Assembly: GCA_049521795.1 (NCBI GenBank)
Contig: JBEKOM010000011.1
Span: forward strand, 39,634-103,633
Direction: 5' to 3'
DNA: 64,000 nt
From: Candidatus Bathyarchaeia archaeon
GTDB lineage: Archaea > Thermoproteota > Bathyarchaeia > Bathyarchaeales > Bathycorpusculaceae
A program made the position numbers and the translations under genes. The notes below the pieces were generated by a model. That model worked only from the letters and a program-made list of their open reading frames with translations. It was not told where the DNA came from and ran no database searches. Positions 44,221 to 58,042 of the stretch are shown piece after piece. Each line of letters starts with the position of its first letter. Positions within the stretch are counted from its first letter, which is position 1.

Positions 44221-44856
44221 TCAACAGACGGAGGCTCTATGTCTGTCAAGAATTCCCTTGAGTGATGTGGCCGCTTGTTCAGGGCTCTTCGCTTTAAGGA
44301 TGGCTGAGGTGACGGCTATTCCATCCGCTCCAGCTTCAAGAACAAGGTGGGCGTTCTTTGGAGTTATGCCTCCAGCAGCAAATATCGGAATCGTGGTTCT
44401 GGATTTCGCAGCTCTGATCGTCTCAAGAGGCACGGTCTCGCATTGAGTGGCAGAAGACGTTGGAAAAATAGAGCAGAAGGAAACATAATTCGCTCCCATG
44501 GATTCGGCCCACTCTAGCCTTCTCAGGTTATTTCCCAATGTGTAGCCAACTATGCATCGTTCACCAAGTATTCGCTTGACCTCGTCTGGTACGACATCGT
44601 AGCTGTCGAAGTGTAACCCGTCGGCTTTGATCTCCTTAGCTAAGAGACAGTTGCCGTTGATGAGGAAAGGTACATCGAACTGTTCGCTCAGCTTGGATAA
44701 ATCTTTGGCCACCTCTAGCGCTTCGGAGTTTTGTCTCCCAGGAACGAATTGAAGCACGTCGACGCCTCCCTTCAAGGCTTTCTTGACCGCACTCAACACT
44801 TCATGAGAAGGTAAGATAGGGGCAATAACTAAGTACAGGCCTTCTAGCCTTTTCAA
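44221..44856 (-). CDS. ThiE/TenI-fold protein with degenerate pyrophosphate-binding site
   Basis: GLYLV, GGVD.LQ, ADGLH, IFPTSS, AAGGI, AGADGIAVTSAI; QxRxK, ND and TxTK motifs altered. Confidence 0.8.
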   Translation of the reverse strand: MKRLEGLYLVIAPILPSHEVLSAVKKALKGGVDVLQFVPGRQNSEALEVAKDLSKLSEQFDVPFLINGNCLLAKEIKADGLHFDSYDVVPDEVKRILGERCIVGYTLGNNLRRLEWAESMGANYVSFCSIFPTSSATQCETVPLETIRAAKSRTTIPIFAAGGITPKNAHLVLEAGADGIAVTSAILKAKSPEQAATSLKGILDRHRASVC

Positions 44857-44861
44857 ATTGG

Positions 44862-45929
44862 TTACTTCCGTCCTTCGCGGGAAGCTTTCCAGTAGGCTTC
44901 CCAGTAGGGGTCAGTCTTGGGTTTTTTCAGAGGTTGTTTTGCTCCGTCTTTTCTAACCCATCTGCCATCTTTAGAGCGTTTGACTTTGCCAATCACTTTG
45001 CTTCTTATCCCTTTCAAACTCAACTCATGTATGACTTCTTCAGCCTTTTCAGGATTCGCGCTGATCAACAGAGTTCCTTCGCTCAGAGTTGAATAGGGCG
45101 ATAGGCCGAAAAGATCACACACTCGTTTTGCTTCCTCAGTAACTATGACGTCGGTAAGCTCTATTTCCAGTCCAACGTGCGAAGCTTCAGAGAATTCGTA
45201 GAGGGCTCCAAACAAGCCTCCCTCTGTAACATCATGCATAGCTGTGACTCCTCGATCTCTTAAGCCAACAGAAGCCGCTGTCAATGCGTCCTCGACTACG
45301 CTAAACTGGCTCAGATATGATTGAGCTCTTTTCAAGAAAGATGTTCCGTAAGCCTTCTTAATTGTCTGAGGGAAGACTCTTGCAAGTATTCCGGTTGTCG
45401 CTATCGCAACACCTTTCGTCATTATCAGCAGGTCGCCTGGCTTGCTCATGCTGCTTGACACGTATTGTCTCTCTGGTACCACAGACATCATCACGCCTCC
45501 TCCTACAACTGTGTAGTCGGAACCAACGTATCTGCCGGTGTGTCCTCCGATGATGGCGATTCCTAGTCTTTTGCATTCAACGTGTATGTTCGTCCAGTAT
45601 TCTTCGAACTCTTCGTTGCTCATCCTGGGGGGAAGACTGAGATTTACCATCATGAATTGAGGCGGAAAACCGCAAGTAGCCAAGTCTGAGGCAAGCAGTT
45701 GTACTGAGAGATGTGCTGAGTCCTTAAGTCCTAATTCTGGGATCACCGATAGCGGATCAGCCGTCACGACGAGAACCTGATTGCAACCTAAGCGTACGAC
45801 CGCGTTATCACGACCATGGCCGGGTCCAACGATGACGTCTGCCCTTTCTGCTCCTAATCTGGGGTAGACAGCTCTCTCAATTAGATCCAACTCGAATTTC
45901 CCGATCTTCGGTTTAGTCATAAGCATCAC
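44862..45929 (-). CDS. AIR synthase (PurM)/HypE/ThiL-superfamily ATP-dependent enzyme
   Basis: G.DNAVV, TADP, SDLAT.G, IGGHT, PGDL, AMHDVTEGG, SEGTLL. Confidence 0.85.
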   Translation of the reverse strand: MMLMTKPKIGKFELDLIERAVYPRLGAERADVIVGPGHGRDNAVVRLGCNQVLVVTADPLSVIPELGLKDSAHLSVQLLASDLATCGFPPQFMMVNLSLPPRMSNEEFEEYWTNIHVECKRLGIAIIGGHTGRYVGSDYTVVGGGVMMSVVPERQYVSSSMSKPGDLLIMTKGVAIATTGILARVFPQTIKKAYGTSFLKRAQSYLSQFSVVEDALTAASVGLRDRGVTAMHDVTEGGLFGALYEFSEASHVGLEIELTDVIVTEEAKRVCDLFGLSPYSTLSEGTLLISANPEKAEEVIHELSLKGIRSKVIGKVKRSKDGRWVRKDGAKQPLKKPKTDPYWEAYWKASREGRK

Positions 45930-46599
45930 GGAACTTTACTGCTAATCCGAGGTAAGAACCAAACGGGAAAAAGGCTGATTCTTGGCTGCCGAGAGCTTTC
46001 GGAAAGACTGTTGTGCTCCAATAGTCAACGGTGTGCGTGTTGTGAAAGGTTTTTCTCAATATCCGCTTTATGTCTAGGATGGAGTAGAACTTCGCGTTTT
46101 TGTAAAATGGGTTCTTTCCCATCTTAACTTGGGCAATCCTCCGGATAGTGCTTAGGCTCCACTTGTTCATGAGTCCGATGATCATTCCTTTTCGAGCGAC
46201 CCTTGCGGCTTCCTGAAAAACTGTGCCGACATTCGGCATGTACTCTAGGCACGCTATAAAGGCTATTACATCAAAAGACCGGGATTTGAAGGGCAAGTGG
46301 TGAGATTCACCTTGTATCAATTGTCCATTAGGCCAGTGCTTCCTCGCTTCAACAAGCATGAGATGTGACAAGTCAAGCCCGCAGCATTCCAGCCCAAGAG
46401 ATTCCATCCATCTTGTGAAATGACCTGTTCCGCATCCCACTTCAAGCACTTTCTGTACATCACCAAACTGATTCAGAAGCTTCCTCAACAATTTCTTCTC
46501 AAGCACGTCTGCACGTCTGTACTTAGTCTGGTAGTATGCCTCGTATCCCTTGACTATTCGTTCCTGCAAATACCACGGTTCTTCTTGCATTCCACTCAT
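45913..46599 (-). CDS. Class I SAM-dependent methyltransferase
   Basis: VLEVGCGTG, GLDLS..ML..A, LPF....FD. Confidence 0.88.
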   Translation of the reverse strand: MSGMQEEPWYLQERIVKGYEAYYQTKYRRADVLEKKLLRKLLNQFGDVQKVLEVGCGTGHFTRWMESLGLECCGLDLSHLMLVEARKHWPNGQLIQGESHHLPFKSRSFDVIAFIACLEYMPNVGTVFQEAARVARKGMIIGLMNKWSLSTIRRIAQVKMGKNPFYKNAKFYSILDIKRILRKTFHNTHTVDYWSTTVFPKALGSQESAFFPFGSYLGLAVKFRDAYD

Positions 46600-47124
46600 C
46601 TAGGCTAGATAGGTAATGTCCAAATTTCTCCTGACTGCCACAAGAATTCCATAGGTTACTGGAACGAAAACAAGGTCCACCAATGTCCCGAAATCTAAGA
46701 TAGCCGTCCCGAACCCGAATGCATAGAAGTCCAGCCCAAAAAAGAGTAAGGTCTCAACTGCCACTCCGAAGATCATCGCGATTATCTCGTTTTTTTTACG
46801 AAGCAACCCCACGGTGAGACCCATCGGACCACGGGCAACTACTATTCCAAACAGAAACCAGTACGAGAACCCACCTGAAATTGTGCCTAACGTCGAGCCA
46901 AAAGAGTAGCCGATCGCAGATCCAATAACAGTCGAGATCAGTCCTGCTGCAGGGCCCAAGAGAATGCTTGTTACAAAGATAATAATCGGTGCCAGAGTTA
47001 TTGCGGCAAGCGGAGTGGGCATCGGTATGGCGATCACCGTTCCCACTGCAATCAAAGCAGCCAAAACAGATATCAAGGCAACTATTCTCGTTCGAGATAT
47101 TGGCACAGGTGTTTTCTGTTTCAC
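46600..47124 (-). CDS. ECF transporter S component, TPP-riboswitch controlled (thiamine/precursor uptake)
   Basis: TRIVALISVLAAL, IPMP, ILLGPAAG, 5-6 TM helices; directly downstream of the TPP aptamer. Confidence 0.8.
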   Translation of the reverse strand: MKQKTPVPISRTRIVALISVLAALIAVGTVIAIPMPTPLAAITLAPIIIFVTSILLGPAAGLISTVIGSAIGYSFGSTLGTISGGFSYWFLFGIVVARGPMGLTVGLLRKKNEIIAMIFGVAVETLLFFGLDFYAFGFGTAILDFGTLVDLVFVPVTYGILVAVRRNLDITYLA

Positions 47125-47220
47125 TTTTTTCCCTCCGCCAGCATTACCTGGATCAGGTTCTAAGGGTCGACGATGTTCAACCGTCCTCTCAGCCGGGTCA
47201 CAGTCCCAGCTCCCCGAAAC
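47125..47220 (-). ncRNA. TPP (THI-box) riboswitch
   Basis: Minus strand GTTTCGGGGAGCTGGG..CCCGGCTGAGAGGACGGT..ATCGTCGACCCTTAGAACCTGATCCAGGTAATGCTGGCGGAGGGAAA carries the CUGAGA, ACCUGA and GUAAUGC..CG.AGG consensus motifs with pairable stems. Confidence 0.95.
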
Positions 47221-47383
47221 CTATGAACGGTAGTGCCATCAATCGGTATAAAAGCGTTCTGGATGACACTTAACACTACGTAACCAACGAAACATGCGTT
47301 GCTTGGGAGATCGTGATCTGTTGCTGCTTCTCGCCGATCACACAGACTTAAAAACTTCATTGATCAATTAGTCTTGATGTTTC

Positions 47384-57943: not shown

Positions 57944-58042
57944 GGGCCCGTAGCTCAGTAAGGACAGAGCACCGGGCTTTTAAGCAAAAAGCTTTGCGCG
58001 GAAACCCGGGGGTCCCGGGTTCAATTCCCGGCGGGCCCGCCA
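57944..58042 (+). tRNA. tRNA-Lys(UUU) with 21-nt intron at 37/38 (57983-58003) and encoded CCA
   Basis: Acceptor GGGCCCG/CGGGCCC, D-arm GCTC/GAGC, anticodon stem CCGGG/CCCGG with CT-TTT-A, T-arm CCGGG-TTCAATT-CCCGG, G73-CCA. Confidence 0.92.

Follow-up and report, generated by a model that had tools for sequence, protein, structure and literature searches.

How can a riboswitch control the translation of a gene when the start codon follows the ligand-binding fold almost immediately? This question is raised by a locus on contig JBEKOM010000011.1 of a Candidatus Bathyarchaeia archaeon. It lies in a stretch of 64,000 nucleotides (nt), hereafter called the window, in which a thiamine pyrophosphate (TPP) aptamer precedes a four-gene operon on the minus (-) strand. 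When the whole 64-kb window was scanned with the Rfam models, two matches exceeded the curated thresholds, one tRNA and the TPP aptamer family RF00059. The aptamer match, at 47226-47113 (-), scored 66.6 bits (E 7.1e-11) against a gathering score of 54.3 bits and spanned model positions 1-105 of 105. The original prediction, which was made from the sequence alone, had called a TPP riboswitch here, and the RF00059 search agrees with it. The aptamer is single-copy in the 2.44-Mb, 69-contig genome (genome-wide E 6.3e-13).

An alignment of 107 distinct archaeal sequences was used for the structure tests. The blocks that line the ligand pocket (CUGAGA and ACCUGA ... UAAU ... GCG.AGGGA) are all intact in the window, and the corresponding columns are invariant in the 107 relatives, CUGAGA included. 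Judged by its aptamer, the element is a genuine TPP riboswitch, for which TPP binding and regulation of the operon are predicted. The features on which the following analysis relies are listed from 5' to 3', after the aptamer itself.

47113-47226, - strand: RF00059 aptamer, full model (covariance-model match)
47247-47253, - strand: TATA-like box TTTTATA, read from the sequence; putative promoter element
47222-47224, - strand: predicted transcription start, A47224 or A47222, from archaeal TATA spacing
47217-47223, - strand: 5' strand UAGGUUU, of which GGUUU (47221-47217) is the P1 5' strand (Rfam alignment)
47187-47192, - strand: CUGAGA, conserved junction of the pyrimidine-sensing arm, matching the Rfam consensus
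47154-47157, - strand: CCUG, P4 5' strand and partner of the Shine-Dalgarno (SD) sequence (Rfam alignment)
47132-47136, - strand: GGAGG, SD-like core (Rfam alignment and sequence)
47125-47131, - strand: spacer, one G and six A (sequence and Rfam register)
47122-47124, - strand: GTG start codon, first possible start of the open reading frame (ORF) 46600-47124
47101-47109, - strand: CCUGUGCCA, codons 6-8, complement of UGGCGGAGG (47140-47132), paired with it in longer folds

In the Rfam alignment, G47136 is located in a CG bulge between P5 and P4, and G47135, A47134, G47133 and G47132 form the P4 3' strand. The stretch G47135-G47132 faces C47157-G47154, with three Watson-Crick pairs and a G-G mismatch at a position where the consensus has G-U; three of the five bases of GGAGG are Watson-Crick paired. 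In the same register, the last G of GGAGGG (47136-47131) and the first A of AAAAAA (47130-47125), i.e. G47131 and A47130, belong to the junction, and A47129-A47125 make up the P1 3' strand. An in-frame TAG is present at 47223-47221 and no ATG, GTG or TTG occurs between it and GTG 47124, which is thus the first possible start. The spacer between GGAGG and GTG is 7 nt long and the GTG adjoins the last P1 position, 47125, the ribosome-binding site (RBS) region being built wholly from aptamer nucleotides. The start codon occupies the same relative position in the homologous loci L034, L040 and L042.

Between the aptamer and the start codon there is no hairpin, and no other SD-like motif fits in the 7-nt gap. 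Furthermore, no run of at least five T was found on the - strand between 47260 and 46744, an interval covering the leader and the first 380 nt of the gene. With a 7-nt gap and no T-run, a separate expression platform cannot be accommodated. The TTTTATA box, the GGAGGG, the six A residues and the GTG had been placed at exactly these positions on the - strand by the original prediction, and its two structural claims, that the SD sequence is the aptamer 3' strand and that neither platform nor terminator is present, were both borne out.

The TTTTATA box is located 25 nt upstream of P1, where the sequence reads GGUUUC, and both the box and its spacing to the aptamer recur in the same-genus loci L010, L013 and L017. 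Given the usual archaeal distance between TATA box and transcription start, transcription would begin at about 47224-47222. The leader would then probably be about 100 nt long and consist nearly entirely of the aptamer.

A purine-rich motif at this place is not by itself surprising: no TPP aptamer lacks AGGGA (consensus CGuAGGGAa), so that GGAGGG alone does not go beyond chance. Chance does not account, however, for the constancy of its distance to the start codon, found again in 61 of 108 related loci, as detailed below. In addition, the organism makes use of SD sequences at this very distance. As no 16S rRNA is assembled in the window's own genome, the 16S 3' end was taken from a same-genus genome (G001) and two further relatives, in which it reads GGAUCACCUCCU and contains CCUCC, the complement of GGAGG, within a CCUCCU end. 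A census covered the 2135 ORFs of at least 150 amino acids (aa) in the window's genome, positions being counted from the first start codon in each. The GGAGG 5-mers starting at positions -16 to -11 numbered 7, 17, 18, 14, 15 and 9, i.e. 80, against a background of 0-2 per position between -40 and -20. The GGAGG of the riboswitch starts at -12, within this peak, which indicates that SD sequences are used by this organism and that the one in the window stands at the preferred distance.

The same data bear on the nature of the host. The 16S sequences of G001 and of the two other relatives matched the archaeal small-subunit model with 1474-1515 bits, and TATA-like boxes are found upstream of the aptamers in the window and in its relatives. 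The tRNA gene of the window, at 57944-58039 (+) and scoring 59.4 bits, contains 22 inserted nt in its anticodon loop, which would fit an archaeal tRNA intron. The closest protein-atlas clusters of the first protein of the operon are archaeal, most commonly from Candidatus Bathyarchaeota. A Bathyarchaeia-like host had been proposed; its archaeal nature was confirmed by the 16S rRNA of its kin and by the intron-bearing tRNA, and the placement in Bathyarchaeia comes in this analysis as a lead from the protein atlas.

The prevalence of this arrangement was then established among relatives. Of 61 close relatives, 40 have an RF00059 match; the window's own family, f1, accounts for 31 of these, from 36 genomes. 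In wider samples, matches were present in 93 of 151 genomes drawn from the class and, at E <= 1e-5, in 30 of 151 drawn from the phylum. The original prediction had regarded riboswitches as rare in archaea; in this class, TPP riboswitches are on the contrary common. From the class, 110 loci were examined, 30 from the scan of close relatives and 80 from the top of score-ranked tables, about 40 weaker matches being left out. The sequence anchors could be located in 108 of them (L045 and L052 were left out). When a locus was called direct if an ORF-opening start codon lies 5-14 nt after GGAGG, 61 of the 108 loci, distributed over 11 families of the class, were of this type. Their spacers measured 5 nt (1 locus), 6 (6), 7 (19), 8 (20), 9 (11), 11 (2), 12 (1) and 14 nt (1), so that 56 of 61 fall between 6 and 9 nt, and the 7 nt of the window belong to the mode of 7-8 nt. 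The start codons were ATG (40), TTG (12) and GTG (9), and the products, in counts that overlap, were ThiT (Thia_YuaJ, 49), ThiW (5), PF07155 proteins (11) and a ParA-like ATPase (1).

The 47 other loci, 45 of which were scanned for their products, precede ThiC (8), ThiT (13), ThiW (6), NCS1 permeases (4), ThiD (2) and others; all eight ThiC loci belong to this group and none is direct. The motif U(C/U)UCAG, mostly as UCUCAGC, was found within 70 nt after the aptamer in 18 of the 47, compared with 4 of the 61 direct loci. UCUCAGC is complementary to the GCUGAGA of the aptamer and looks like an anti-aptamer strand. It is located 10-25 nt past the aptamer in f24, f26, f27, f30 and f35 (e.g. L078, L080, L082, L085, L087, L093, L095, L096 and L113), and in these platform loci it is followed by C-rich, anti-SD-like runs and then by a separate SD sequence.

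Outside the class, 20 loci were fetched, of which 19 could be scored. The direct layout was present in 8 of 8 fetched f44 loci and in 1 of 2 f56 loci, which belong to other classes of the phylum, in each case before ThiW-like proteins. A different arrangement was seen in f42, where P1 is perfect (GGUAGC/GCUACC) in all eight loci and CUCCUUCU comes next; seven then continue with AAGGAGGUG and an ATG. By its sequence, this arrangement would be a textbook anti-SD/SD sequestering hairpin in archaea. The eight loci concerned are L127, L129, L130, L133, L138, L139, L141 and L146, in which P1 is followed by GCUCCUUCU and, in seven, by AAAGGAGGUG and ATG; the f42 aptamers lie upstream of a gene for a periplasmic-binding-protein-like product (MRIGWR...). 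Direct and platform architectures thus appear to coexist in these archaea, and the sequences of both point to control at the SD. Since most of the kin that lack the direct layout carry separate platforms with an SD of their own, SD control would be a local habit.

The alignment of the 107 relatives supports the fold of the aptamer. Pairing was found in 93% of the cells of P2, 99% of P3, 97% of P3a and 89% of P4/P5, and 14 pairs showed changes on both sides. The covariation score was 0.237, compared with 0.130 for shuffles (none of 500 reached the observed value) and at most 0.126 with slid partners. In P4, all 107 sequences have standard pairs at the three inner positions. The outermost pair is G-U in 15 and unpaired in 92. 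The variable base on the P4 3' side is G in 77 and A in 16 of 108 loci. The G that completes GGAGG is found in 51 of 61 direct loci but in 26 of 47 others (Fisher p = 0.002, kinship ignored), and it is obtained at the cost of the consensus G-U pair, which only those 15 sequences keep. This is mild evidence that the variable P4 position has been tuned toward an SD role, with the loss of a base pair as the price.

P1 is far less uniform. In Infernal alignments, five other direct-type loci have 4, 4, 2, 0 and 0 of the five pairs, and the platform-type locus L130 has 5 of 5. In L066 and L064, each with 4 of 5 pairs, the P1 3' strand is the spacer between SD and start and reaches the first base of the start codon. 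Compensatory changes in P1 were read manually in f1 (GGGUCU with AGACC in L003, GGGU with ACCC in L006). A hidden long-range P1 was also looked for, by comparing the 30-nt 5' flank with 40 nt of 3' sequence; in no group was the complementarity better than in shuffles, in a test of low power for helices of 4-5 bp that also missed the 4 of 5 pairs shown by Infernal in L066 and L064. In an approximate scan with an ad hoc motif list, the distance from the end of the TATA-like motif to P2 was about 31-36 nt in f1 and about 23-28 nt in the other families; from the usual archaeal spacing, we infer transcripts that start 8-12 nt upstream of P2 in the former and 0-5 nt upstream in the latter.

Taken together, these results lead us to propose, as the rather probable explanation of the locus, a TPP-sensing translational OFF switch that has no separate platform and carries its RBS inside the aptamer. 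The messenger would start at about 47224-47222, with a leader that is essentially the aptamer alone. In this leader, GGAGG (47136-47132) would act as the P4 3' strand within the pyrophosphate-sensing arm, the A-rich spacer (47131-47125) would provide the short P1 3' strand, and the GTG would come next. Abundant TPP would clamp the P2/P3 and P4/P5 arms together; with the ligand bound, the SD sequence would be held in P4 and the spacer in or beside P1, so that the 30S subunit would be excluded and the salvage operon for the S component, the methyltransferase, the ThiL-like protein and ThiE would stay untranslated. When TPP is scarce, P4 would be easily lost, because it has only three standard pairs beside a G-G mismatch. 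In family f1, the 5' UAGGUUU could then pair with GAACCUG, which would remove the partner of the SD sequence and leave GGAGG and the start codon single-stranded.

Folding predictions for the leader 47224-47122 are compatible with this last step. The minimum free energy (MFE) fold, at -32.2 kcal/mol, contains the helix between UAGGUUU (47223-47217) and GAACCUG (47160-47154). In this predicted fold the SD is 80-97% unpaired, the SD and start together 80-100%, and P5 persists. The best fold that keeps the aptamer core reaches -29.9 kcal/mol. Since the gap of about 2 kcal/mol is far below typical TPP binding energies, the ligand could flip the balance. As a general mechanism, the alternative helix was rejected, no enrichment being found outside f1; it is best taken as a refinement specific to this lineage. 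A pairing of CAU 47225-47223 with the GUG start was also set aside, as these bases may lie upstream of the transcript and relatives do not generally share the pairing.

Several points weigh against a switch of this kind. According to a 2021 account, no archaeal TPP riboswitch mechanism had been experimentally verified by then (PMC8241225), and the transcription start that makes the leader so short is a position that we infer from the promoter spacing. P1 is weak in the window, with 3 of 5 standard pairs, all U-A, in the Rfam alignment; a shift by one register, read manually, gives four pairs (C47216-G47131 and three U-A). The RBS had been predicted to be sequestered in P4 and P1; GGAGG is indeed the P4 3' strand, in which the ligand would sequester it, and the contribution of P1 is small in this copy. 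Across the 107 sequences, P1 is paired in 49.7% of cells in a fixed register, and the direct-type loci L111 and L040 have 0 of 5 pairs. The enrichment in G at the variable P4 position falls, within f24 alone, to 12 of 14 against 7 of 13 (p = 0.10), and the test on the whole set ignores phylogeny. As for the alternative helix, its complementarity in f1 is the same in direct and in platform loci (-5.7 and -5.8 kcal/mol, shuffles about -2), and outside f1 it is not enriched (-2.7 versus -2.3 kcal/mol). Finally, with at least 24 nt of coding sequence in the fold, the predicted partner of the SD becomes codons 6-8, with or without ligand. This CCUGUGCCA/UGGCGGAGG duplex amounts to -14.3 kcal/mol, a value reached by 1.5% of codon shuffles. 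As a conserved feature, the helix between 47140-47132 and 47109-47101 was rejected (p <= 0.05 in 2 of 61 loci; p = 0.35 in the closest homologue, L034, where it is weak); it is probably due to chance and stands as a caveat for a model in which the SD is free without ligand.

Other explanations have to be considered with the same data. It is unlikely, though far from negligible, that the f1 leaders are true two-state devices in which the 5' UAGGUUU is an obligatory anti-sequestor, the SD staying buried without this helix even when TPP is absent. The complementarity of the f1 flank to GAACCUG (-5.7 versus -1.9 kcal/mol for shuffles, with p <= 0.05 in 19 of 29 direct loci) argues in this direction, as do the UAGGUUU helix in the MFE of the window leader and the retention of AGGUUU in f1 even where the 3' tail differs. 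However, the helix is found equally in the f1 platform loci and is not enriched in the 32 direct loci of other families; its partner strand is invariant, so that no covariation could be scored, and all the support comes from one lineage. If a functional aptamer controlled the amount of mRNA instead, by premature termination or by decay depending on the 5' end, its proximity to the start codon would simply reflect a compact leader. The aptamer does stand at the extreme 5' end, with 5' nucleotides that are predicted to be paired in the ligand-free fold and largely free in the aptamer fold, which could alter the exposure of the end; archaeal riboswitch mechanisms are moreover described as essentially uncharacterised (PMC8241225). 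We nevertheless hold such control to be improbable in view of the absence of T-runs from the leader and early gene, of a start distance of 6-9 nt in 56 of 61 direct loci, which is an SD geometry that neither decay nor termination needs, and of the clear anti-SD/SD pairing in related platform loci. In Thermoplasmatales, reads from TPP aptamers were paired with reads from the downstream transporter, pointing to read-through transcripts (10.1101/538918).

A further possibility is that the folded aptamer blocks translation without GGAGG being an SD, initiation being SD-independent and inhibition resulting from burial of the start or spacer near P1 or from steric hindrance. AGGGA is obligatory in all TPP aptamers and needs no SD to explain it, the G completing GGAGG is replaced by A or U in 10 of 61 direct loci, and in L066 and L064 P1 extends to the start codon; in the window, CAU 47225-47223 could pair with GUG, though possibly from upstream of the transcription start. 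This explanation seems quite improbable to us given the clear genomic SD signal at exactly this distance and the matching anti-SD, together with a spacer of tightly constrained length and the excess of G at the variable position, which sacrifices a P4 pair. That the aptamer is a decaying, non-functional copy that merely happens to precede the operon is most improbable. Its P1 is degenerate, and the first gene is not ThiT, which follows the aptamer in most same-genus relatives; but every position that is invariant across the 107 relatives is intact, the score exceeds the curated cut-off, and this is the sole TPP aptamer of a genome in which neither ThiC nor ThiT was found. The same S-component family is also located behind a TPP aptamer in three other genomes or records.

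The switch proposed here, with the SD inside the aptamer, can be compared with known systems. In E. coli thiM, a separate platform is present, in which an anti-SD segment pairs with the SD outside the aptamer. thiM has the same aptamer class as the window and the kind of translational OFF control at the SD that is proposed here (PMC2018614). Unlike thiM, the window has its SD in the P4 3' strand itself; the f42 loci and those of the UCUCAGC type are closer to thiM. In SAM-II and SAM-III (SMK box) riboswitches, which respond to S-adenosylmethionine (SAM), and in preQ1 riboswitches, the SD is located inside the ligand-binding fold. The preQ1 and SAM-I classes are mentioned by Barrick and Breaker (PMC2258182). 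In SAM-II, SAM-III and preQ1, as in the switch proposed for the window, the aptamer and the element that sequesters the RBS are one structure, but these are bacterial riboswitches with other aptamer classes and ligands.

The closest counterpart is described by Barrick and Breaker (2007, PMC2258182) under the term 'direct translation attenuation', which applies when no more than 15 nt separate the aptamer core from the start codon. In bacterial TPP riboswitches of this type, the conserved purine-rich 3' region of the aptamer serves as RBS without any further platform, an observation for which these authors credit Rodionov et al. 2002. A start codon within 15 nt, a purine-rich RBS and the lack of a platform are common to these elements and to the window, as would be the OFF logic. 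The differences are that the host of the window is archaeal, with a TATA-type promoter, that the aptamer is apparently at or near the mRNA 5' end and that P1 is short or missing in many archaeal copies. At the level of sequence, the window element has everything that defines direct translation attenuation. It is an archaeal case of a design whose mechanism has already been published for bacteria, and not a new mechanism.

In archaea, TPP aptamers precede multi-pass membrane proteins in Thermoplasmatales such as Thermoplasma and Ferroplasma (10.1101/538918, PMC5473149); they were already known in 2002, and aptamer and transporter are transcribed together (10.1101/538918). Both there and in the window, an archaeal TPP aptamer stands before a putative thiamine-related transporter; however, Thermoplasmatales belong to another phylum, and the comparison is one of published descriptions, which does not extend to the GGAGG-spacer-start layout. 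The fluoride riboswitch of Thermococcus kodakarensis, given as the only archaeal riboswitch experimentally tested as of 2021 (PMC8241225), is likewise archaeal and presumed to be translational, but it belongs to another class and is an ON switch for an exporter. The counts of McCown et al. 2017 attribute 79 riboswitches to Euryarchaeota, 6 to Crenarchaeota, 1 to Korarchaeota and 1 to Thaumarchaeota (PMC5473149). A literature search, judged by titles and abstract openings, returned nothing specific on archaeal TPP riboswitch mechanisms or on riboswitches in Bathyarchaeota.

To the known design, the present analysis adds its prevalence in the class (93 of 151 genomes), a sharply defined spacer of 6-9 nt in 56 of the 61 direct loci, the presence of platform versions alongside it, and a weak or absent P1 combined with an apparently 5'-terminal aptamer. 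A broader proposition can be advanced tentatively. The commonest control of thiamine transporters in the phylum may be a stripped-down TPP riboswitch that constitutes the entire 5' untranslated region. Its transcript would begin at P2 or a few nt before it, P1 would be vestigial or absent (0-4 of 5 pairs), and UAGGG in the P4 3' strand would have become GGAGG, tuned to serve also as SD, with the start codon 6-9 nt later. If TPP binding and ribosome gating hold true, this would be a minimal TPP riboswitch of natural origin that dispenses with a closing helix, and the first metabolite riboswitch with a defined mechanism in archaea. In a domain where riboswitch mechanisms are nearly unexplored, one class displays two forms, an SD in the aptamer and an anti-SD platform, which argues for SD occlusion as a principle of regulation at work in these archaea. 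With its 100 nt, the leader is in addition a small, defined object for in vitro study and a candidate compact thiamine-responsive part for archaeal genetics.

The genes placed under this putative control are four, tightly packed on the - strand.

46600-47124, - strand: ECF-type S-component-like membrane protein, 174 aa, first gene (PF07155, 35.4 bits, cut-off 26.7)
45913-46599, - strand: class I SAM-dependent methyltransferase, 228 aa (PF08241, 73 bits)
44862-45929, - strand: AIR-synthase-family protein, ThiL-like, 355 aa (PF00586 and PF02769)
44221-44856, - strand: thiamine-phosphate synthase ThiE, 211 aa, last gene (PF02581, 143 bits)

They are followed by convergent ORFs on the + strand, so that the operon ends at thiE. 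The assignment of the 355-aa protein to ThiL is tentative, its TIGR01379 (thiL) match of 81.8 bits being below the cut-off of 184, and ThiE scores 142.4 bits with TIGR00693 against a cut-off of 145.1. The methyltransferase gene at 45913-46599 lies between the S component and the ThiL-like gene, within this thiamine operon. In the window's genome, which is 98.75% complete, no ThiT family member and no ThiC were found. A search for Thi4 gave only short partial matches to an N-terminal region of dinucleotide-binding type, and one ThiM-like match (43 bits) lies within a 517-aa frame on contig C5. It is probable that the organism, in the manner of an auxotroph, has to import thiamine or precursors, with which the lack of detected ThiC and ThiT is in keeping. 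For annotation, the riboswitch links the PF07155-like S component and its operon to thiamine in such an organism.

Homologues of the S component stand directly behind TPP aptamers in G042 (58% identity) and G005 (36%). In L034, the sole locus returned when public contigs were scanned with the S component, this protein is 83% identical, the aptamer scores 65 bits and GGAGGGAAAAGTG is present. The L034 record (1300-2025) is labelled as an acidobacterial metagenome-assembled genome, 'Candidatus Acidoferrum', yet it has the same archaeal-style TATA region, aaagataaatatac, the same aptamer and GGAGGGAAAAGTG; its 15-kb contig is probably a mis-binned archaeal contig rather than a case of gene transfer.

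Some observations were made on the other loci of the class. In six of those not scored as direct, a ThiT-type frame reaches the aptamer and a noncanonical codon sits 7-10 nt after GGAGG (ACG in L008, L029, L101 and L114; ATA in L017 and L097), and, when L008 is compared with L009, no canonical start is seen ahead of TK(I/V)LAE, a conserved N-terminal motif. The six codons could be either near-cognate initiation codons of transporter genes under riboswitch control or recurrent assembly errors. The thiC and permease loci of f1 (L007, L012, L024, L025, L026, L035, L036, L057 and L058) have spacers of 75-90 nt with shared T-rich blocks, e.g. CTTTTTTAAG, which end in TTTTGGAGG just before the start. 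The oligo-T tracts might be archaeal termination signals, in which case transcriptional and translational control would be combined.

In f1, the promoter region about 60 nt upstream of the aptamers, TTTAGGAAAAATAAATATAC-AACTAAATAACAATTA(C/T)CC, is conserved nearly letter for letter across many genera. This conservation holds before thiT, thiC and the NCS1 permease and includes the stretch between TATA and start, beyond what a TATA box needs; it may reflect a site bound by a protein, or the copying of a cassette made of promoter and riboswitch. Finally, two TPP aptamers lie 1.6-3.6 kb apart on one contig in G080:C19 (L072, L073), G159:C42 (L089, L097), G098:C46 (L100, L114), G144:C81 and G179:C7. 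L072 and L073 are identical over the part compared. Such pairs suggest adjacent, separately regulated thiamine genes or a local duplication of the cassette.

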